Positions 974 through 10,658 of a DNA stretch of 16,550 nucleotides are shown piece by piece; the first letter of the stretch is position 1, and each line of letters begins with the position of its first letter. Position numbers and translations under genes: made by a program. The stretch is from a virus, in the UHGV virus genome UHGV-0152507, one strand, 5' to 3'. Below the pieces are notes generated by a model. It did no database searches. It worked only from the letters and a program-made list of their open reading frames with translations, and was not told the DNA's origin.

Positions 974-1996
974 TTAACTAACCCGCAAAACCCCCGCATT
1001 GCCTCCAGAGTGTGGACGCAATGTGGACATTCCACTAAGGGGATTATAACTCACCGCATCCAGTAAATAGTCCGGCGCGAAGTGAGCATAGGTCATAGTT
1101 TGCGATATGTCGGAATGACCAAGAATTCGTTGTAACGCGATAATATTTCCGCCCTTAATCATGAAGTGCGTGGCGAACGTATGACGTAGCGCGTGCGCGG
1201 CTTGCCCATCTGGAAGATTGGGCTTTGCTTCTTTCATGCGCAGACGGAAGGTTTTATAGCTCACGCGGAACAGTCTTCCCGATTCCTGATGTTTCACTAT
1301 TTTTGCAATGTCGTCAGATATGGGGACCACACGCCGATCTCCGTTTTTAGTGATCGTAAACATCACCCTGTTACCGACAATGTTTTCCGCTTTAAGCTGG
1401 TAGGCTTCACCCCATCGAGCACCGGTAGCAAGCAGCAGAACGGCGATGCGGTAGTAATCACCTGAGCACAGGGATAGCAGCCGGTTTACTTCCGACTCAG
1501 TGAAATACGACATTTCCGTTTTTGGCTCTTTCAGCGCTGAAATTGCTGTTACCGGGTTTTCACCGTGAAACTCATCAATTTCGGCCATAGCTTTAAACAC
1601 ACCACTAAGTGCAAACAGGTCATGATTTATCGTTGAAGCCTTGATCCCTTGCTCCAGCCTATATGCCCGGTAATCAATAAGACATCGCGCATCAATCTGG
1701 TAAATCATGGGATCCCCCATATCGTGGCAAATACAGTTAACAGCACTAAGCCTGCGGTTTGCGTAGTTCTTATTCCGTCCGATTAACTGCCACCATAACG
1801 CGATAAATTCGCTTAGTTTTCGCTTATCAGCCGGTCTATTTAAAAAATCATGGTTCTGATACTTGGCAATAATGCTTCGCTCAAAAGCGTGCGCATCTGC
1901 CTTTCTCTCAAACTTCCGCCGAATGCGCTTTCCGTCGCGCCCGCGCGGCCTGACATCCACTTCATAGCGACCATCTTCGAGTTTCTTAACGGACAT
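974..1996 (-). CDS. int: Tyrosine integrase, P2 Int-like
   Basis: N-terminus MSVKKLEDGRYEVDVRPRGRDGKRIRRKF closely resembles P2 Int. C-terminal catalytic motifs HALRHTFATHF and LGHSDISQTMTYAHF (tyrosine nucleophile). Start chosen at ATG 1996 with SD GGAGGG 7 nt upstream, rather than the TTG at 2011 in the ORF track. Confidence 0.9.
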   Translation of the reverse strand: MSVKKLEDGRYEVDVRPRGRDGKRIRRKFERKADAHAFERSIIAKYQNHDFLNRPADKRKLSEFIALWWQLIGRNKNYANRRLSAVNCICHDMGDPMIYQIDARCLIDYRAYRLEQGIKASTINHDLFALSGVFKAMAEIDEFHGENPVTAISALKEPKTEMSYFTESEVNRLLSLCSGDYYRIAVLLLATGARWGEAYQLKAENIVGNRVMFTITKNGDRRVVPISDDIAKIVKHQESGRLFRVSYKTFRLRMKEAKPNLPDGQAAHALRHTFATHFMIKGGNIIALQRILGHSDISQTMTYAHFAPDYLLDAVSYNPLSGMSTLRPHSGGNAGVLRVS

Positions 1997-2065
1997 AAGA
2001 AAACCCTCCAACAGTCAGATCACTATCCTGGTAACAAATAGTGAAAATGTAATGTTTATATAATG

Positions 2066-2368
2066 TTAACCAGTCTTTTTCCCGGAGGGGTCTGATTGAA
2101 TTTCGTCTTGCCCATTGTGTGCGAGAGCCGGTGCTATTTGGCCTCGGCTCGGATCTGTACGGTCGTACATGAACCAATCCTGATACTTATGGAATCGGGG
2201 ATGACCAAAGAGTTTGATCGCAGCATCTAATGACATTTTTGATTTGCCTAATTCATATCCATTATAGGTTACGGGATTTACTCCAATTAAATCAGCAACT
2301 TGTTTCGATCTAAGTCTTTCAGAGTCTCTTATCAATTGAAGCTTTTCACTTTGGCACATTGACTTCAT
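2066..2368 (-). CDS. C: Immunity repressor, P2 C-like
   Basis: 100 aa. C-terminal half SRGQIAPALAHNGQDEIQSDPSGKKTG matches the P2 C tail (QIAPALAHFGQ...SGQKTG as recalled). N-terminal HTH region is similar. Lies upstream of and co-oriented with int, as in P2. Confidence 0.85.
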   Translation of the reverse strand: MKSMCQSEKLQLIRDSERLRSKQVADLIGVNPVTYNGYELGKSKMSLDAAIKLFGHPRFHKYQDWFMYDRTDPSRGQIAPALAHNGQDEIQSDPSGKKTG

Positions 2369-2403
2369 CTATCTATTCTCTTATCGTCTATCTAAATAGA
2401 TAC
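2366..2403. promoter_or_regulatory. Candidate repressor operator in the divergent C / early promoter region
   Basis: Direct 8-bp repeats TCTATCTA at 2368..2375 and 2387..2394 (19 bp apart). The second is part of the palindrome TATCTA-AA-TAGATA (2389..2402). P2 C is known to bind direct repeats about two helical turns apart at Pe. Confidence 0.4.
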
Positions 2404-2487
2404 AGCAAGCGACATTAGACGCTCACCACCAATGAGGCTTGCTAGTGCTAAAGATGCCTCAGCAAGCCTCAACGAAGGAGTCTATCA

Positions 2488-2949
2488 ATGAAAGAAATCC
2501 GAGAAAACGAATTAAATGCGAGATCTCAGTATTTACGTCAGTTTCCGTTAGATGGTGCTCGCGTCGCACGAATCTGCAAGATGACAGAAGCGCAAGCAAA
2601 CGCTATTCGCGATATGAACACCGACGAACTGCAAAAGCAGGTTTTCGTTACACCTGTTGAATTTGCATATCTGACGGGCCGGACTCTTAAGTCAGTACGT
2701 AACTTAATGGATCGTGCTCAGTTACCGGTCCACCGCGAAGGGATGCCGGGTTCCAAACGTCCTAAGCGTTTCATCATGCTGCAAGAGTATTGGGACGCCG
2801 TAGCACACTGCCGCGCACTAATTACCCCAGAAGAAAAGCACTACATCGATCGTCTGATGCGCGACAAGAAAACATATCGCCGCGTAACTGGTAACAATCA
2901 TCAGACGCATACGCGCACAAGCCGCAATTCAGCAAGGGCTGTCGCATGA
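2488..2949 (+). CDS. cox: Cox-like excisionase/early regulator with N- and C-terminal extensions
   Basis: Internal segment PVEFAYLTGRTLKSVRNLMDRAQLPV aligns with P2 Cox (EFAKLIGKSTGAVRRMIDKGKLPV as recalled). First gene of the rightward operon; strong SD GAAGGAG 7 nt before ATG 2488. At 153 aa it is longer than P2 Cox (91 aa); a later start at the in-frame ATG near 2581 is possible. Confidence 0.7.
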   Translation: MKEIRENELNARSQYLRQFPLDGARVARICKMTEAQANAIRDMNTDELQKQVFVTPVEFAYLTGRTLKSVRNLMDRAQLPVHREGMPGSKRPKRFIMLQEYWDAVAHCRALITPEEKHYIDRLMRDKKTYRRVTGNNHQTHTRTSRNSARAVA

Positions 2950-3404
2950 AAAACAGCAAATCAGTAAACGAACTTATTTCCGCTGTGAATGAGTTTTTGC
3001 GTAACAGCAACCCAGAGCGCTTGATCGATAATGGCATTCACGAAGCCTTATGCAACCTCGTTGATGCCGTAAGCCAGCAACAAGAAGAAATCGACTCCCT
3101 GCTGGAACGGCTGAATGCGCATAGCCCCGTTAATAGCGCGATAAAGGAAGAATCCGGTACTGTATTTCGCCGCCGCTATTACCGCAATGGTGTTCACGCG
3201 GGAAATGTTTATTTCCGAATTGAAGCGTTTGAAGGGATTAAAAGTTGGGCAGAAGAACTAAGGGCTGATTTTGAATCTTGTCTTAACGATTTTATTTCAC
3301 GACTTCACCCTGAACACCGTGCTTGCTTCGTTTCTACAGTAATAAGTCGCGCCCACAGTTTGACGTCGGAAGAGAAAGCGGAGTGGGAGCGACTTCAGAA
3401 GTAA
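2946..3404 (+). CDS. Hypothetical early protein carrying a portal-like FRRRYY-NG-HAG motif
   Basis: 152-aa ORF; ATG overlaps the cox stop (ATGA at 2946..2949). Contains TVFRRRYYRNGVHAGNVYF, which matches TIFRRRYYNNGAHMGFILY in this prophage's portal and the corresponding P2 Q segment as recalled. Confidence 0.7.
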   Translation: MKNSKSVNELISAVNEFLRNSNPERLIDNGIHEALCNLVDAVSQQQEEIDSLLERLNAHSPVNSAIKEESGTVFRRRYYRNGVHAGNVYFRIEAFEGIKSWAEELRADFESCLNDFISRLHPEHRACFVSTVISRAHSLTSEEKAEWERLQK

Positions 3405-3410
3405 AAATGA

Positions 3411-3641
3411 TTATTTATTTGCCGTCGCATTTGCAGGGCTAAATTGCATCAGCTCCTTATAGAGTTTCTGCATATGCGGATTGTCCATTTCTTTCAGTGA
3501 CTTCATAACCCTTAAAGCGTGCTCATGTGACTGAGAGAAAATGGATAGGGCTAGGGCCATTTTTAATGCACTGATTTCGCCGTTGATGTCATTGAGATCA
3601 GTTTCAAAAGTGACGTTATTGACTTGATAACTATTGCTCAT
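3411..3641 (-). CDS. Hypothetical small protein (76 aa), antisense to the early operon; moron-like
   Basis: Good SD (AAGGA, 6-nt spacer) before ATG at 3641. Visibly AT-richer than its neighbours. Sits between plus-strand genes, with a 136-bp non-coding stretch on its 5' side (3642..3777). Confidence 0.6.
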   Translation of the reverse strand: MSNSYQVNNVTFETDLNDINGEISALKMALALSIFSQSHEHALRVMKSLKEMDNPHMQKLYKELMQFSPANATANK

Positions 3642-3777
3642 TTTTTTCCTTTGCGTTGGTAAAAGTTATGCCTGATTCACCGCTCAACGTTTCACAGGCA
3701 TAGCGATGTTAGCACAGGAAACACGCGCCGGGCGTGGGGTTATATCCCGGCACTTTTTCAATTTGACGGAGATCAAC

Positions 3778-3999
3778 ATGGACTTAACACAATGCCCTTC
3801 ACTTGCCAGCCTGCTAACCCACGGCCAGCAGATCACCCACCGTCAGCATCAACGCGGCTGGATTGAAACCCCGGACGGGCGTTTCTTCCAGCCTAAAGCA
3901 GCAGATGTTCAATTTATTAAAAACTGCCGTTTACCGTTTATGTCGCGCCCGCGTAATAAGCGCCGCTGGTTTTCCCGCTTAATGGGTATCTTCGCGTAG
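3778..3999 (+). CDS. Hypothetical early protein (73 aa)
   Basis: ATG 3778 preceded by GGAG with a 6-nt spacer. The longer form from ATG 3706 lacks a convincing SD. No recognisable motif. Confidence 0.5.
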   Translation: MDLTQCPSLASLLTHGQQITHRQHQRGWIETPDGRFFQPKAADVQFIKNCRLPFMSRPRNKRRWFSRLMGIFA

Positions 4000-4014
4000 T
4001 TCGGGGAGGTGGTT

Positions 4015-4404
4015 ATGTTGATGGATAAGACAGGACAACAGCCAGGCCGCCGCCAGTTCTTAGAGCAACGGGCGCGGCTGCAAGCCAGTTTGAACGCCTC
4101 ACGCGTGAATGACACTGCAACCCGTTTTAACCGCCTGGATGATGCCTGCAAAAAGGTGATTTTCATCCTGGCAAACGATGCGTCCAGATACATAGCCGGA
4201 ATGCCGAAGCTGACCGCCAAACAGTTGGGTTGCACTTACGAAAATCTAACCGAAAAGGAGCAAACGTGCCTTTTGATGGGCATTAAGCGCCTTTCCGAAT
4301 TTGCAGCATCAATGCCGTGGGAATTTGAGGACTACGCCGCACCACGCGCCGAAATTCAGGCGATACGCGACAAACCACCCGCGCCAGATAACGCAGTCAA
4401 TTAA
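4015..4404 (+). CDS. Hypothetical early protein (~129 aa)
   Basis: ATG 4015 with SD GGAGGT 4 nt upstream (the ORF track starts at GTG 4009). Codon usage is like the neighbours. No motif recognised. Confidence 0.6.
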   Translation: MLMDKTGQQPGRRQFLEQRARLQASLNASRVNDTATRFNRLDDACKKVIFILANDASRYIAGMPKLTAKQLGCTYENLTEKEQTCLLMGIKRLSEFAASMPWEFEDYAAPRAEIQAIRDKPPAPDNAVN

Positions 4405-4474
4405 CAACTAACTACCCACAAAAAAGAAACAGGCGCTAACGCGTCGGGCTTCTTGCACCCTGGAGAAAGTAAAA

Positions 4475-5479
4475 ATGATTCGATCTCTCGTTAAATGGCC
4501 CGGTGGTAAAGGCCGCGTTATGCCTGATTTGCTGCCGATTCTGCCGAAAGCCGATTGCCTGGTGGAACCGTTTGTCGGCGGAGCTTCTGTTTTCCTCAAT
4601 ACTGAATATCGCCGTTATATCCTGGGTGATATCAACCCAGATTTAATTAACCTGTATCGCCAGATAACCCGCTGGCCTGATGCGGTGATCGACGCTGCTC
4701 GCCCGCTGTTTAAAGTGTACGGTGATAAAGACGGCTATAAGTGGATCCGCGACGATTTCAACGCCCGCGCCCATGACCTTCTGTCATCGCGCAATGTGTT
4801 TGAGGACGGACCGGACGCGGGCAAGATTCTTCGTGCAGCACAGTTTCTTTACCTGAACCGTCACGGATATAACGGCGTAGTGCGCTACAACCAACAGGGC
4901 GGATATAACGTTCCCTTTGGTAGACACAAAACCCCGCCTTACTTCCCGGAAGAACAGATCCGTTTATTCTCTGAAAAAGCTAACGACACGAAAGCTATTT
5001 TCGTGTGCTGCGATTTCCAGAGCACGTTAAAAATCATGATTGGTAGTGACGCGGTTATCTACTGCGATCCGCCATACCTGCCAGCAAGCGACACCGCTAA
5101 TTTCACCCAATACCACACCGCCCCGTTTGGCATTAAAGAGCATCGCCAGTTAGCTGCCGCCCTGCTGGATATTAACCGCCTTACTGGTTCGCCGGTGATC
5201 CTGTCCAATAGCGACACCCCATCTACCCGCGAGATTTATCGCGCTTTCAACTTCCAGGAAATCAGCGTTAACCGTTCTGTCAGCGCGAACGCCATTACCA
5301 GAGGGGCCGCCAGTGAAGTGATCGGCGTGCTGCCTGTCTGTGATGGCTGCGGGCGCTATGAAGGTGGTCACTGTGCGAAATGTTGCCCAGGTATCGCCGC
5401 ATGTGAGGAGGGATGGTCGTTTGATTGTCGAGGCAACTGCGATATTTGCGAGCCGTCCGATAACCCGGAAACGTGGTAA
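4475..5479 (+). CDS. dam: DNA adenine methyltransferase (Dam family) with a C-terminal Cys-rich extension
   Basis: AdoMet-binding motif EPFVGGASVF near the N-terminus and catalytic DPPY (CDPPYLP), with Dam-like sequence throughout. SD GGAGAAAG. The last ~50 codons (5330..5479) encode ten cysteines that are not part of a typical Dam. Confidence 0.9.
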   Translation: MIRSLVKWPGGKGRVMPDLLPILPKADCLVEPFVGGASVFLNTEYRRYILGDINPDLINLYRQITRWPDAVIDAARPLFKVYGDKDGYKWIRDDFNARAHDLLSSRNVFEDGPDAGKILRAAQFLYLNRHGYNGVVRYNQQGGYNVPFGRHKTPPYFPEEQIRLFSEKANDTKAIFVCCDFQSTLKIMIGSDAVIYCDPPYLPASDTANFTQYHTAPFGIKEHRQLAAALLDINRLTGSPVILSNSDTPSTREIYRAFNFQEISVNRSVSANAITRGAASEVIGVLPVCDGCGRYEGGHCAKCCPGIAACEEGWSFDCRGNCDICEPSDNPETW

Positions 5480-5495
5480 TAGCGAGGGATCTGCA

Positions 5496-6125
5496 ATGAG
5501 AAAAACACACGAATTAAAGATTTGGCCGGAGTTTTTTCAACCTGTTATGGACCGCGTGAAATACGCTGAATTGCGCCTAAATGATCGCGACTATAGCGCG
5601 GGCGACGTTTTGTTTTTGCGGGAGTTTTTACCCGCTAGCGGCAAATATTCGGGCAGCTATAACGTAGTAATAATATCTCATGTCGCTGATGTATCGGCGT
5701 TTATGCCGGGGTACGTCCTGCTTAGTTTCACTTCTTTCGTTACGCGCGGCGCTAACTGGCCTTTCCATAAGCCAACTACAGTGGAGGCTGCTGTAACTGC
5801 GGAAGATACTGGTTTTCTTTCGGCGCTTGTCGCCTGCGAGCCTCCCTGTAGCGTGATTCACCAAATGGCACGCCGACTGCTTGATGAACATCCATCGCTT
5901 CCAGTGTCCGAAAAATCTGATCTGTTGCCATGCCCCTTTTGCGGTGAAGCGGCTTTCTTTGACTCTATTTTTGATTACCAGTCAGAAACGCGTGTTTATG
6001 CCCCGTCTTGTACGGAGTGCTCATGCGAATTGATGGACGGCCCGATCATTAACAAATATGGGCGCGGTTGGTATGCCTCAAAGCAGGATGCCGCCGAAGC
6101 CTGGAATAAAAGGCGCTCGCAATGA
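5496..6125 (+). CDS. Two-domain protein: N-terminal DUF3850-like (ASCH/PUA-like) domain fused to a C-terminal Lar-family restriction-alleviation-like domain
   Basis: N-terminus MRKTHELKIWPEFFQPVMDRVKYAELRLNDRDYSAGDVLFLREF matches the DUF3850 hallmark as recalled. C-terminus LPCPFCGEAAFFD...SCTECSC...AAEAWNKRR matches the Lar-family pattern (CPFCG ... C-x2-C ... AWNRR). SD GAGGGA before ATG 5496. Stop overlaps the next start (ATGA at 6122..6125). Confidence 0.8.
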   Translation: MRKTHELKIWPEFFQPVMDRVKYAELRLNDRDYSAGDVLFLREFLPASGKYSGSYNVVIISHVADVSAFMPGYVLLSFTSFVTRGANWPFHKPTTVEAAVTAEDTGFLSALVACEPPCSVIHQMARRLLDEHPSLPVSEKSDLLPCPFCGEAAFFDSIFDYQSETRVYAPSCTECSCELMDGPIINKYGRGWYASKQDAAEAWNKRRSQ

Positions 6126-7126
6126 CTGCCTATTACAACGAAATCGATCCATATGCAGCACAGTGGCTGCGCAACCTCATTGATGCCGGGCATATTGCGC
6201 CAGGCATTGTTGATACCCGTTCAATTGAGGATGTAACCCCCAATGACCTTAAAGGCTTTACTCAATGTCACTTCTTTGCCGGGATCGGTGTGTGGTCATA
6301 TGCCCTGCGTCTTGTGGGCTGGCCGGACGACAAACCGATCTGGACTGGATCCTGCCCATGCCAGCCTTTCAGCCCGGCAGGCAAAGCAACTGGGTTTGAT
6401 GACGAGCGGCACTTATGGCCCGCCTTTCATTGGCTCATTGCTCAGTGCCGCCCTGTCGTTGTCGCTGGCGAGCAATCTGGAAGCGCTAACGCGAACGTCT
6501 GGCTCGACCTTGTACAAACTGACATGGAAAGCCTGGGCTATGCCTTCGGGGCGGTCGCGTTTCCGTCTGCGAGCGTCGGTGCGCCACACATCTGGGACAG
6601 AGCTTACTGGGTGGCCGACACCAACGGCGAGCGCATGGAAACACCCTGGAAACCAGGGGAGGCAGGGAGGCTTGAATTTGCAAACGGCCACAGCATTAGC
6701 TGGGTGGCCGACACCAACAACGCAGAGCAACAACCAAATCTCAGGAGTTGGAGCTGCTGCAGATCACCCGAAGCGCGGGACAACTTTGGGCGGGGCTGCT
6801 CAGCTGTCGGGGTGGCCGACACCAGCTTCAAGGGACGGCAAGGGGGGGTATCAGGGCGGGAGGATACGCAACGGGAAGCTGTCGACGGACACGCTGGATG
6901 TGACGGCGCAAATTGCGGGACCGGTCCGGTTAACGGTTTCTGGCGATCTGCTGACTGGCTGTATTGCCGGGATGGAAACTGGAGGCCAGTTAAACCCGGA
7001 CTTAAGCCGCTGGTTGATGGGGTTACCGGACGAGTGGGAAAAATCCGCGCCTACGGAAACGCTATCAACGTTGAAGCTGCAACAGCGTTCATAAAGGCTT
7101 ATATGATGGGGGCGTCAAATGTCTGA
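6122..7126 (+). CDS. Dcm-like DNA cytosine-5 methyltransferase, apparently frame-disrupted or frame-variable
   Basis: Annotated frame has FFAGIGVW (motif I-like), catalytic PCQ at 6356..6364, RPVVVAGEQ (motif VI-like), LESLGY, GAPHIWDRAYWVA (motif VIII-like) and YGNAINVEAATAFI (motif X, 7052..7093). The motif IX-like LNPDLSRWLMGLPDEW is only in the overlapping +1 frame (6990..7037). Confidence 0.7.
   Translation: MTAYYNEIDPYAAQWLRNLIDAGHIAPGIVDTRSIEDVTPNDLKGFTQCHFFAGIGVWSYALRLVGWPDDKPIWTGSCPCQPFSPAGKATGFDDERHLWPAFHWLIAQCRPVVVAGEQSGSANANVWLDLVQTDMESLGYAFGAVAFPSASVGAPHIWDRAYWVADTNGERMETPWKPGEAGRLEFANGHSISWVADTNNAEQQPNLRSWSCCRSPEARDNFGRGCSAVGVADTSFKGRQGGVSGREDTQREAVDGHAGCDGANCGTGPVNGFWRSADWLYCRDGNWRPVKPGLKPLVDGVTGRVGKIRAYGNAINVEAATAFIKAYMMGASNV
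6607..6826. repeat. Three copies of a 19-nt element inside the methyltransferase gene
   Basis: CTGGGTGGCCGACACCAAC at 6607..6625 and 6700..6718; CGGGGTGGCCGACACCAGC at 6808..6826. They encode GWPTP in the +1 frame and (W/G)VADT in the annotated frame. Confidence 0.7.
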
Positions 7127-9737
7127 CGCCGCCTTTGCATGGCCCTGGAACGCGCCGCGCCCAGCTGTTGGCCTGTACACCTACGAACCGAAAAAAATCG
7201 CCCCGCTTGCCGGGGCGGTGGCGCATCATCCTGCCGTAAAAAAACACATCGATCACATATTCAAACGCGCCGGTTACAACCCTGACGACGTTCGCGACCG
7301 TGACGCGCTGATCCAGACGCTGGACAGGTACGAACCGTGCGGCCTGCCACTGGCCGCCCAACAAAATATCATCCGGCAGGAAAGTGCAGCCGCGAAAGCT
7401 GCGGCGGCCGCCTGGGCCAATACGCCGGAAGGTGTCGAAGCGCGTTTGTTGTCTGAGCCGTTCTTCATCCGCGAAGTCTGGCGCAAAAAAATTGAATGGT
7501 TACGGGCCAACCGTGAAACCAGACACACCAATGATTTTCTTATGGGGACCGTGAAAAAATCATTGCTGCGTCTTGATGTTGTGCGCACAAGGCAAGGTGT
7601 TTCGCCTGATATCACCGGCGAACTGGCCGCGTACTGGTTCGGGCGCTGGCAACGGCTGGCTGATTTCACAAAGCGGGAAGCCCTAAGCGCCGCTAATGAG
7701 ATCGCCAGCCGCATGGCTGAAATGCTGGGGACGGAATGCGAAGCCTTGGGACGAAATGTTTCAGACATGAACGTCGAAGAACTGGACTGGCTTTATTGCC
7801 ACCTGGGCCGTGAAATGCTGGCGCTTCGCATTGTGCCGCCTGCATGGTATGCGCCGTGGGAACGCGAGCGCATATGCACGGCCATTTTGCGTATGGCTTC
7901 GCCTGACTGGTGGGGGCGCAAAATCTGGCGCTTGCGTTGTGACTGGCGCGAAAACCAGCTGCGTGCTGTTGGCGCGGTAAATAAAAAAGCGCATCCGTAT
8001 ATCAGTGCATCAAGCCTGATGGAATGGCAGGAACAGCGACGTAAAAACCGTAATTTCTTCAAAAGTCATGAACTGGTAGACGAAGACGGCAACGTTTCGT
8101 CGCTTGAGGACATGATTAACAAATCCACGTCTAACCCTGCAATTCGTCGTCATGAGCTTATGGCCCGTATGGCTGGCGTGGAGCTTGTCGCCCAGAGTCG
8201 TGGCGATGTTGGCATCTTCCTGACCATCACTTGCCCGTCGAAATATCACGGCAATATTGCGTCCGGCCACCATAACGCAAAATGGAACTACGACACGGTT
8301 GCACAGGCGCAACGCTATTTATGCCGCGTATGGAACCGGGCAACCGCCAAACTGAAACGCGAAGATTTGCGCCCTTACGGCTTCCGCGTCGCCGAGCCGC
8401 ATCACGACGGAACGCCACACTGGCACGCCCTGCTATTTATGCCGCAGGCAGAAGTTAAAGCCACGGTAGCGATTTTGCGTGATTACTTTGTCAAAGAGGA
8501 CCGCGCCGAACTGGGGCGTAATACCGGTGCTCGCTTCAAGTCCAAAAAAATGGACCCACGGAAAGGGTCAGCAACGGCGTATATCGCGAAATACATTTCG
8601 AAGAATATCGACGGCCATGCGCTGGCCGGTGAACTGGACGACGAAAGCGGCAAGCCGCTGAATGAAACAGCCAAATATGCAATGGCCTGGGCATCACTTC
8701 ACCGCATCCGTCAGTTTCAGCCCATCGGACAGCCGCCCATATCGGTTTACCGCGAGCTGCGCAAACTGAGCAATCAGATCACGACGCGCCAGAAAATTGA
8801 CAATACCTTCAAGCGCGGTGCGCCGTTGCTTGTGGATCCTGCTATGGATGCGGTTTGCGCCGCTGCGGATGTCGGGTGCTTTGCTACCTACATCATCCGC
8901 CAGGGTGGTGTTTTGATCCCGCGAGAAAACTATGTCGTCCGTCTGGCCTATCAGCCAGCTGATGAAATGAATGCTTATTGTGAGATCCCCGAAAAGGTAT
9001 TCGGGGTCTGGTCGCCACGTCTGGGGGATGCCTCCCGCATTTGCACCCGTCTGGTTAAGTGGAAAATCCGCGCCAAATCCAAAGCCACCACCGGGGCCAA
9101 AAACGGCCCCGGTTTGGGGGTTGACCTTTTGCCGTCGCCAACCGGCGACGCTTGGAGTTCTGTCAATAACTCTACGGAAGACGAAAAAATCACCGATTTT
9201 TCGCCTGATGTGGAAGGGGTGACAGGAGGAGCAGAAGGGGAAATCGGCGATGTTGAAAACATGGACCAACCGACACGGCGAAAATTGATGCGGCGACTAC
9301 GTGAAACACCATTCAAAAGGCAGCAAAACGGATCACCTTATGAGCCAGGCAGCGAATTAGATGTCGCCTGGCGTTCTGCCGTGGAAAAAACCGAGGCCAG
9401 ATCGGCGGCAGAAAAGGCCAAACGGGCGGCGCTTGCCCCTGCTGTTGCCAGCCTGCTGGCAGATGCGGCGTTGTATTCGGTTGAGATTTCAGAGATTCAG
9501 GCCGTTTCGCTGTTAATGGGGAGTTGTCTGGAGATTGGCGGCAAAGTTTATCGGGCCAGTGCTGACGGCCAGTTGATAACGCGTCAATTACCCGACGAGT
9601 CACGGACGGTGAATAAATTATGGGAACGTCTGCGGGATAACCACGGCATAGATGCCACGCGCCTGCGGTTCGACCCTGCGGGCGAATACGCAAAGATGTT
9701 AACGAAAGCAATTAATTGCGCTGACAAAAAGGGGTGA
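7119..9737 (+). CDS. A: Rolling-circle replication initiator endonuclease, P2 gene A-like
   Basis: 872 aa. HUH-type motif GTPHWHALLF and paired-tyrosine motif YIAKYISKN (compare phiX174 gpA YVAKYVNK). N-terminal AWPWNAPRPAVG resembles P2 A. Position after the early accessory genes is as in P2. Confidence 0.9.
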   Translation: MSDAAFAWPWNAPRPAVGLYTYEPKKIAPLAGAVAHHPAVKKHIDHIFKRAGYNPDDVRDRDALIQTLDRYEPCGLPLAAQQNIIRQESAAAKAAAAAWANTPEGVEARLLSEPFFIREVWRKKIEWLRANRETRHTNDFLMGTVKKSLLRLDVVRTRQGVSPDITGELAAYWFGRWQRLADFTKREALSAANEIASRMAEMLGTECEALGRNVSDMNVEELDWLYCHLGREMLALRIVPPAWYAPWERERICTAILRMASPDWWGRKIWRLRCDWRENQLRAVGAVNKKAHPYISASSLMEWQEQRRKNRNFFKSHELVDEDGNVSSLEDMINKSTSNPAIRRHELMARMAGVELVAQSRGDVGIFLTITCPSKYHGNIASGHHNAKWNYDTVAQAQRYLCRVWNRATAKLKREDLRPYGFRVAEPHHDGTPHWHALLFMPQAEVKATVAILRDYFVKEDRAELGRNTGARFKSKKMDPRKGSATAYIAKYISKNIDGHALAGELDDESGKPLNETAKYAMAWASLHRIRQFQPIGQPPISVYRELRKLSNQITTRQKIDNTFKRGAPLLVDPAMDAVCAAADVGCFATYIIRQGGVLIPRENYVVRLAYQPADEMNAYCEIPEKVFGVWSPRLGDASRICTRLVKWKIRAKSKATTGAKNGPGLGVDLLPSPTGDAWSSVNNSTEDEKITDFSPDVEGVTGGAEGEIGDVENMDQPTRRKLMRRLRETPFKRQQNGSPYEPGSELDVAWRSAVEKTEARSAAEKAKRAALAPAVASLLADAALYSVEISEIQAVSLLMGSCLEIGGKVYRASADGQLITRQLPDESRTVNKLWERLRDNHGIDATRLRFDPAGEYAKMLTKAINCADKKG

Positions 9738-10309: not shown

Positions 10310-10326
10310 GCCCGCTTTATGCGGGC
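10310..10326. terminator. Bidirectional rho-independent terminator between convergent genes
   Basis: Stem GCCCGC / GCGGGC with a 5-nt loop. Followed on the plus strand by TTCGTTTAT and on the minus strand by ATTTTTA. Lies 5 nt beyond the minus-strand zinc-finger gene stop. Confidence 0.55.
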
Positions 10327-10331
10327 TTCGT

Positions 10332-10658
10332 TTATGCCGTCTGACCGTTGAGCAGGTCCAGCGCGAATTGACGTTCTTCGGGCTTGAGCCGGTCAATCAG
10401 AAATTTAACCAGCTTGTTGCCGGTCAGCCCGCTGGGGCTGAGGGTATGTGAAAACTCAACGCTATAAACAAATGTATGACCACATTCCACTTCCGTGCAG
10501 CCACAGTATAAAGACGCCAGTTTTTTATCTTTCCAGTCAGATTTACGAATGATGGCCGGTGAGCCGCATTCAGGACATTTAATTTTAAAAACTCGCATGT
10601 TCACCATCCCGCACGCCATTGCTAACAATGGGGATGATTTTAACTTAACTGCGCTCAT
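10332..10658 (-). CDS. Ogr/Delta-family zinc-finger protein (putative late-gene transcription activator)
   Basis: CPEC ... CGCTEVECGHTF matches the Ogr pattern CPLC ... CQNVNCSATF, with similar spacing. ATG at 10658 overlaps the portal stop (ATGA). An alternative start at ATG 10598 (MRVFKIKCPEC) would give an Ogr-sized N-terminus. Confidence 0.7.
   Translation of the reverse strand: MSAVKLKSSPLLAMACGMVNMRVFKIKCPECGSPAIIRKSDWKDKKLASLYCGCTEVECGHTFVYSVEFSHTLSPSGLTGNKLVKFLIDRLKPEERQFALDLLNGQTA

Follow-up and report, generated by a model that had tools for sequence, protein, structure and literature searches.

A gene nested in a second reading frame of a C5-cytosine methylase gene adds a fourth coding sequence to the block upstream of gpA in a P2/186-like prophage

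Introduction

The block at 4475-7126 of UHGV virus genome UHGV-0152507, on the plus strand directly upstream of the replication gene A (gpA), raises the question of how many genes it holds and what they do together. The stretch analyzed, of 16,550 nt (the window), is a P2/186-like (Peduoviridae) prophage. The first-pass annotation described the block as three consecutive co-oriented genes, for an N6-adenine methylase, a Lar-like protein and a C5-cytosine methylase, and as described it would be routine exchangeable anti-restriction cargo of P2-like phages. Domain matches placed the three genes at the same positions (all domain E-values far beyond chance), and a nested fourth gene had been overlooked: the block holds four coding sequences, not three. 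They comprise an orphan Dam-family methylase, a DUF3850-Lar fusion, and the alpha and beta chains of a C5 methylase of M.EcoHK31I-type architecture, a known kind that is usually under-annotated. As a cassette of the early operon, the four genes likely serve DNA modification and anti-restriction.

Results

The C5-cytosine methylase alpha chain

The alpha and beta genes and the putative ribosome-binding sequence of the latter were located as follows:

6122-7126, plus strand: C5-cytosine methylase alpha chain, 334 aa (PF00145)
6243-7094, plus strand: beta chain, a nested open reading frame (ORF) of 283 aa wholly inside alpha in the +1 frame
6227-6231, plus strand: GAGGA, resembling a Shine-Dalgarno sequence, 11 nt ahead of the ATG of beta

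The alpha chain matched PF00145 over aa 73-175 only (E 3.4e-10, 40.3 bits vs. a cut-off of 22) and aligned to M.HhaI over residues 72-174. The best Foldseek matches of its predicted fold were M.HhaI and the catalytic domains of DNMT2 and DNMT1 (E ~1e-6). Motifs I (FFAGIG), IV (PCQ, in GSCPCQPFS, with C80), VI (GEQ, with E117), VIII (HIWDR) and X (YGNAINV) were found in the alpha frame, with C80 and E117 invariant in the alpha family alignment. Residues ~171-313 formed a poorly constrained spacer, with a conserved NGFW..ADW..CRDG.WRPV segment after it, and the structure model was confident only at residues 1-170 and in the C-terminal helix (314-332), the ~140 residues in between scoring <50. 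Nothing resembling motif IX was found in the alpha frame; a motif IX-like sequence occurred in the +1 frame. The families assigned earlier to the three genes (Dam, Lar-like and C5 methylase) held, and the label Dcm-like did not, since alpha failed the dcm model TIGR00675 (21.1 bits vs. a cut-off of 100.65). The neighbors of alpha were the Lar fusion and gpA, whose start overlaps the alpha stop (7119-7126); no endonuclease gene was adjacent, and the alpha/beta methylase is an orphan rather than part of a restriction-modification pair.

The nested beta gene

The +1 frame was open over 6237-7094, with an ATG at 6243. Comparisons were made with 82 related loci (80 IMG/VR contigs plus phages SI7 and SEN5; alpha 50-67% identical to that of the window), and 73 distinct genes were used for frame, codon and start-site statistics. 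In each of the 82 loci, the alpha and beta frames both stayed open almost throughout the gene. Across the 73 genes, the longest open stretch had a median length of 299 codons (of 340) for the +1 frame vs. 57 for the +2 frame. When synonymous codons were shuffled keeping the alpha protein and its codon usage, the observed ORF length was obtained in 0.75% of trials. Four-fold synonymous diversity of alpha was 0.55-0.65 over codons 1-80, 0.15-0.30 over the overlap and 0.61 past the beta stop.

Variation by codon position divided the overlap into segments. Over beta residues 1-75, variation peaked at beta position 2 (alpha position 3), and alpha alone is constrained there. All three codon positions were constrained over beta residues 80-118 and 229-265, where both frames are constrained. 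In the variable center (beta residues 119-228), variation peaked at beta position 3 and was lowest at alpha position 3, and beta is the selected frame.

Alpha codons 43-120 contained zero +1-frame stops in 73 of 73 genes (probability of no stop 0.185 per gene), although the corresponding part of beta had no amino acid conservation. In 70 of the 73 genes, the first ATG of the beta frame fell between +85 and +121 nt, and a Shine-Dalgarno-like 4-mer was present ≤22 nt upstream of the beta start in 50 of 73; in the window, GAGGA falls in alpha codons for a conserved I-E-D.

The beta frame matched 10,610 cluster representatives (50% identity), and beta-like sequence was present in 219 INPHARED phages. 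Nesting was found in seven of seven distant phages (K1H, phiEc3, Seifer, PIN1, RcSalem, Marilyn and Cr-LKS3), the distant cases including coliphage K1H, Rhodobacter phage RcSalem, Vibrio phage Marilyn, Klebsiella phages and cyanophage Cr-LKS3. None of the seven was a single-chain relative in which the catalytic motifs and the beta-like region share one frame; PIN1, considered as such a case, was rejected, as it is merely annotated in the beta frame. Two PHROG families named DNA methyltransferase (31772 and 1008) recognized beta.

Selection acts on both frames, and the +1-frame ORF inside alpha is a gene. Were it instead open by chance or through GC-rich composition, its conservation a shadow of selection on alpha, the +2 frame would not be expected to break at a median of 57 codons, nor shuffles that preserve alpha to yield the ORF so rarely. 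The synonymous constraint on alpha matches the overlap exactly and is released past the beta stop, the codon-position pattern of the center is that of beta and not of alpha, nesting is kept from enterobacterial phages to a cyanophage, and M.EcoHK31I is an experimental precedent. Some observations do weigh against a gene: the region has a GC content of 55-61%, the first ~75 beta residues have no protein-level constraint of their own, beta had no meaningful Pfam, NCBIfam or PADLOC match and none among PDB sequences, searched both as a single sequence and as a profile, and its structure predicted alone (41-sequence alignment) reached a pLDDT of 32, with no confident fold. On balance, a chance ORF is extremely improbable.

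Beta motif IX and GWPTP modules

Three direct repeats of 23 nt, with the core GGGTGGCCGACACCA, were present in the overlap:

6601-6623, plus strand: first 23-nt direct repeat
6694-6716, plus strand: second 23-nt direct repeat
6802-6824, plus strand: third 23-nt direct repeat

The repeats read GWPTP in beta and WVADT in alpha. In beta, three GWPTP modules and the conserved segment STLYKLTWK..PSGR..LRAS.RxTS were accompanied by a motif IX-like sequence, QLNPDLSRWLMGLPDEW. The latter gave the sole hhalign match between beta and HhaI (beta 249-270 to HhaI 273-294, in motif IX register; E 0.21, not significant), and the signature was found in 122 of 150 beta cluster representatives. Genes in the set of 73 had 1-5 GWPTP modules, and the 150 cluster representatives had 0-7. 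Logan contig L083, 99% identical to the window, lacked exactly one module of 108 nt, and both of its frames stayed open.

A two-chain enzyme

In M.EcoHK31I, beta lies wholly inside the alpha gene in a different frame and the enzyme needs both chains; alpha holds motifs I-VIII as well as X, and beta holds motif IX (PMC2836561, PMC3404938). The small domain of C5 methylases comprises the variable region and motif IX (PMC3404938). The confidence pattern of the alpha model, together with the selection data, suggests a division by domain, with alpha as the large domain with a middle spacer and beta as the small domain. Translation of beta would start at its own ATG (6243, +1 frame), and the chain would supply the small domain, with variable GWPTP target-recognition modules and motif IX; alpha would supply the catalytic large domain, with motifs I-VIII joined by the spacer to the motif X helix. 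By analogy with M.EcoHK31I, the two chains are taken to act as a heterodimer.

It is possible, and proposed here tentatively, that the small domain (target-recognition modules plus motif IX) is encoded in the beta frame only, alpha being there a spacer required just to remain open, and that specificity evolves as GWPTP modules are acquired, dropped or swapped. If true, one DNA segment would encode, in two reading frames, an enzyme split cleanly by structural domain, recombination at the 15-23-nt direct repeats encoding the modules would bring about these changes, and multi-module enzymes could be multispecific, like the multi-TRD (target-recognition domain) methylases of Bacillus phages. Three points count against the two-chain reading itself. 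The match of beta motif IX to HhaI was not statistically significant. The variable TRD-like region belongs to beta by selection here, whereas the target-recognition domain of EcoHK31I has been assigned to alpha (PMC3404938). The likeness to M.EcoHK31I was drawn from published architecture and not from a sequence alignment.

The same arrangement of motifs could be read as a single-chain methylase made by programmed frameshifting, with a +1 shift after motif VIII and possibly a -1 shift back before motif X. Motifs I-VIII and X in one frame and IX in the other, in canonical order, would agree with this, as would the A-rich run GGGAAAAAT between motifs IX and X and the predicted disorder of the alpha middle; the A run is short, however, no conserved slippery heptamer was identified, and an Rfam scan returned no element. 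Constraint on alpha codons ~110-165 and ~270-305 extended to every codon position, and the two frames are thus both read in these zones. The beta frame is open for ~80 codons ahead of any plausible shift site, with a conserved ATG at its start; an open and unconstrained beta N-terminus together with a kept ATG therefore points to separate initiation rather than frameshifting. In addition, alpha and beta of M.EcoHK31I expressed from separate plasmids restore activity (PMC2836561). Programmed frameshifting was rejected as the principal explanation on account of the dual constraint on both flanks, the conserved upstream ATG and the open unconstrained N-terminus, and is very improbable.

Codon 158 of the alpha chain

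6593-6595, plus strand: TGG, codon 158 of alpha (W158), aligned with the first motif VIII arginine (M.HhaI R163)

Motif VIII of the window reads H-I-W-D-R, W replacing the first arginine of QxRxR. Arginine was present at this position in 72 of 73 homologues; the 99%-identical contig L083 had CGG, and the 99%-identical protein P0271 had R. The change (R158W), private to this copy, was silent in beta. Substitution of the equivalent arginine in Dnmt3a nearly abolishes catalysis, base flipping and formation of the covalent intermediate (PMC4802922). Because R158W falls on an invariant arginine of motif VIII, C5 activity is probably impaired, and C5 methylation by this prophage is probably lost or weak. 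The change may thus leave the C5 part of this copy without activity, which weighs against a working four-gene cassette here; the Dam gene and the Lar fusion appeared intact. From R158W it is predicted that phage DNA from the induced lysogen would carry m6A but not the m5C made by near-identical relatives.

Relative to L083, R158W is a C-to-T transition in CCGGG (CGG to TGG; 6581-6595). It altered the inner C in a sequence of CCNGG/CCGG type, as deamination of 5-methylcytosine would, but a single event of this kind proves nothing.

Dam-family methylase and DUF3850-Lar fusion

The other two genes of the block, and the junction of the second with alpha, were:

4475-5479, plus strand: Dam-family D12-class N6-adenine methylase, orphan, 334 aa (PF02086, TIGR00571)
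5496-6125, plus strand: fusion of DUF3850 (ASCH/PUA-like) with a Lar zinc ribbon, 209 aa (PF12961, PF14354, TIGR03655)
6122-6125, plus strand: ATGA stop/start overlap of the fusion gene with the alpha gene

The Dam gene matched PF02086 (E 2.8e-57, 194.8 bits vs. a cut-off of 22) and the dam subfamily model TIGR00571 (258 bits vs. 114.85), and its translation contained an AdoMet-binding FxGxG motif (EPFVGGASVF) and a catalytic DPPY motif (IYCDPPYLP). The best PADLOC model was "orphan methyltransferase" (290.8 bits). The score for the host-Dam equivalog NF008152 was below cut-off (257.7 vs. 441 bits), and judged by these profiles the gene is a family member and not a host-type orthologue. Its target is probably GATC. 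A Cys-rich C-terminal tail of ~50 aa (VCDGCGRYEGGHCAKCCPGIAACEEGWSFDCRGNCDICE, 5321-5476) had no Pfam or family match. It was common to SEN4/5 (94%) and to IMG/VR contig L003 (100%), and the SI7 tail was unrelated; Dams of E. coli prophages were 97% identical only as far as ~nt 5325. In these comparisons the tail behaves as an exchangeable module.

The DUF3850 part of the fusion (aa 4-78) matched PF12961 over profile positions 1-77 of 77 (61.8 vs. 22.9 bits), and the Lar part (aa 142-206), which has a CPFC...CTEC zinc ribbon and an AWNKR end, matched PF14354 (41.8 vs. 28.6 bits) and TIGR03655 (41.9 vs. 39.6 bits) by narrow margins. The mechanical ORF starts at GTG 5340; ATG 5496 is the likely start, preferred because GAGGGA precedes it and because the 96%-identical P0391 is also 209 aa. 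The full-length fusion occurred in only two database clusters (P0391 and P0392), no INPHARED record covered ≥80% of it, and the fusion is rare. Salmonella prophages carried separate DUF3850 and Lar genes in the same slot, and the DUF3850 domain was common near gene A in P2-like phages. The link reported earlier between the Lar-like gene and the C5 methylase gene was confirmed in the ATGA overlap listed above. The Lar zinc ribbon belongs to a family relieving type I restriction, from which a similar function of the fusion may be supposed, and the PUA-like DUF3850 domain probably binds nucleic acid.

Mosaicism of the block

P2 and 186 lacked the block. The P2 gene order in this region is cox-orf78-B-orf80-83-A, with the DUF3850 gene orf91 past A, and 186 has before A a DUF2732 gene, a DksA-like gene, an exonuclease gene, a DUF5405 gene and a PAPS-reductase gene. 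SI7 carried Dam, a 75-aa ORF and the C5 methylase; SEN4/5 carried Dam and the C5 methylase. About 30 of the 82 loci were P2-like with the order Dam, alpha, gpA, and the other 52 carried alpha in other phage contexts.

The prophage of Citrobacter meridianamericanus BR102 (L090; NZ_JAJJVQ010000009.1, 1156-6104) shared Dam and the DUF3850-Lar fusion with the window (3790-6126, 96% identity), with a PAPS-reductase gene replacing alpha/beta. Homology ended exactly at the ATGA junction (window 6126), the recombination breakpoint. The slot just upstream of A alternates between two putative kinds of DNA-modification enzyme, and Klebsiella phage Seifer (L095) had the C5 methylase and PAPS-reductase kinds both, near each other. 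In L003 (IMG/VR UViG_2619619076_000005, ~1600-4920), the Dam tail (100%) and fusion (98-100%) of the window were paired with an alpha/beta allele of the SI7 type, just 67% identical to that of the window; the methylase allele therefore recombines apart from its neighbors.

The proposal that the block is acquired cargo agreed with this comparison of relatives, in which SI7, SEN4/5 and L090 differed in content. From its distribution, the block is accessory, exchangeable and mosaic DNA-modification or anti-restriction cargo, not core. Its location had been given as the space where P2 carries B; this stands loosely. The phage is 186-like, as its Fil homologue indicates, and the block occupies the non-essential stretch from fil/dhr to A.

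Prophage setting and early operon

Outside the block, the features relevant to its expression were:

974-2011, minus strand: integrase
2066-2368, minus strand: helix-turn-helix (HTH) repressor (C repressor gene)
2351-2387, plus strand: Pe/pR-like early promoter candidates, the sole plus-strand sites ahead of the block in a sigma-70 consensus scan, with the C repressor gene on one side and the first early gene on the other
3706-3999, plus strand: homologue of 186 Fil, in the early operon
7119-9737, plus strand: gpA replication gene (PF05840, E 1.4e-105), its start sharing 8 nt with the alpha stop
10332-10658, minus strand: Ogr/Delta gene, convergent, with head genes beyond

The plus-strand early operon has the order Fil homologue, methylase block and gpA, followed by the Ogr/Delta gene and then head genes, and a host ABC-transporter gene adjoins the prophage. 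The closest sequenced phages were Salmonella phages SEN4, SEN5, SI7, SW3 and SW5, the last three being 91.5% identical across 66% of the block. The position of the promoter candidates agreed with those of P2 Pe and 186 pR in their annotation. The consensus scan found no promoter-like site on the plus strand over 2400-7300, and the block genes were tightly packed or overlapping within the operon. According to the record annotation, the 186 and P2 counterparts of the operon are repressed in lysogens by the immunity repressor.

A GC-rich hairpin (CGCCCCGCTTGCCGGGGCG) with an A run before it lies inside gpA at 7199-7217 (+80 to +98 from the start). It shares its relative position with the 186 terminator tM1, which is annotated as ending lytic transcripts when A is untranslated; the scan flagged the hairpin on the minus strand, where the T-run is located. 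Between the end of the early operon and the Ogr/Delta gene, a perfect 6-bp GC stem (10310-10326) scored as a terminator in either orientation and probably acts bidirectionally. The early region also contained a 76-aa ORF on the opposite strand (3411-3641, minus strand) and, in the apl/cII position, two plus-strand ORFs of ~150 aa each (2488-2949 and 2946-3404), all with no informative family match; a weak match of 2946-3404 to the PHROG "portal protein" is probably spurious.

Discussion

Expression and role of the block

The block would be transcribed from the early promoter and translationally coupled both internally and to gpA, and its enzymes would be made during phage DNA replication, modifying progeny DNA before packaging. 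Expression during lytic replication is probably likelier than in the lysogen, because no internal promoter was found, the genes are packed, and the P2/186 operon is repressed in lysogens.

For the same reasons, the altered methylation of lysogens that had been suggested for the block is unlikely, as no promoter was found between the Pe-like site and gpA and the P2/186 operon is repressed. Some prophage methylases are expressed in lysogens, and it could be supposed that this block is likewise expressed from the prophage and remodels the methylome of its host. The promoter scan, being by consensus only, may overlook weak or non-canonical promoters, which would favor such expression and weighs against a purely lytic program. 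Against it stand the lack of promoter-like sites on the plus strand from 2400 to 7300, the packed early operon, the immunity repressor that controls the P2/186 counterparts, and the R158W change in alpha, which probably removes C5 activity in this copy. Remodeling of the lysogen methylome by this block is judged quite unlikely.

Anti-restriction is one of several possible roles of orphan methylases in phages, which is a further point against a protective cassette. The methylases might serve the replication, packaging or regulation of the phage itself, or its avoidance of mismatch repair, with protection from restriction not their main role. P1 Dam, for example, is required for pac cleavage. 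The translational coupling of the block to gpA would agree with a role of this sort, as would the annotation that the 186 slot gene must be translated for A to be expressed, and the fact that both methylases are orphans with no endonuclease partner. P2 and 186 nevertheless replicate with no methylase at all; the slot swaps C5 methylase, PAPS reductase and Lar, as fits accessory host-range functions, and a Lar-family domain is embedded in the block. A role chiefly in the biology of the phage itself is therefore rated as unlikely, and the DNA-modification and anti-restriction cassette is preferred.

Consequences for annotation

For many phages and prophages, annotation of the C5 methylase gene covers just one of its two frames in use. 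The records of SI7 and SEN5 had alpha only, as did most others, those of PIN1 (L094, 889-1848) and Cr-LKS3 (L087, 1495-2238) had beta only, and that of K1H had both. In the PIN1 and Cr-LKS3 records beta is called "(DNA) methyltransferase" and the catalytic alpha frame is unannotated; in K1H the beta frame is labeled "Mte8-like", a label for which a literature search gave nothing informative. Thousands of beta products sit in databases as "hypothetical proteins". Predictions of methylomes or host range that treat alpha as the whole enzyme will err, and prediction of specificity should consider the beta modules. The family also offers a clean, deeply conserved test case from bacterial viruses for methods that detect overlapping genes.

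Comparison with known systems

The C5 methylase of the window resembles M.EcoHK31I in that beta is nested whole in alpha in another frame and in the motifs on alpha (I-VIII plus X). In M.EcoHK31I, beta can dispense with its N-terminal ~40 residues (PMC2836561), and the first ~40-75 beta residues are unconstrained in the family of the window. M.EcoHK31I recognizes YGGCCR. The enzyme of the window belongs to a phage early operon and, as an orphan, lacks an endonuclease partner. The beta chain of the window, of 283 aa with GWPTP modules (1-7 in the family), is larger than that of M.EcoHK31I, which is presumably ~176 aa. M.EaeI is assumed to be a relative of M.EcoHK31I.

M.AquI (CYCGRG) is likewise a C5 methylase of two polypeptides, neither of which has all the motifs (PMC3404938). 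It is split linearly in the variable region, with motifs I-VIII on alpha and the distal variable region and motifs IX-X on beta. M.AquI is thus not nested and has motif X on the small subunit, whereas the chains of the window are nested and motif X is on alpha.

The C-terminal 65 aa of the fusion scored above the Pfam and NCBIfam thresholds for Lar, the protein of the Rac prophage of which lambda Ral is a functional analogue. The Lar domain of the window differs from Rac Lar in being joined to an N-terminal DUF3850 domain, and its alleviation activity is putative. The DUF3850 domain is shared with P2 Orf91 and with stand-alone phage proteins (PHROG 986, "RNA-binding protein"); P2 orf91 stands alone downstream of A, whereas the DUF3850 of the window is upstream of A and fused to Lar.

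The orphan Dams of SI7 and SEN4/SEN5 have the same D12-class fold and likewise precede the C5 methylase and gpA genes. In SI7, the Dam core is 97-98% identical to that of the window, and the C-terminal tails differ among relatives. The PAPS-reductase-like orf84 of 186 occupies the same slot, with a similar size (~1 kb) and the same stop/start coupling to A, but belongs to a different enzyme family, the slot of the window being held by the alpha/beta methylase.

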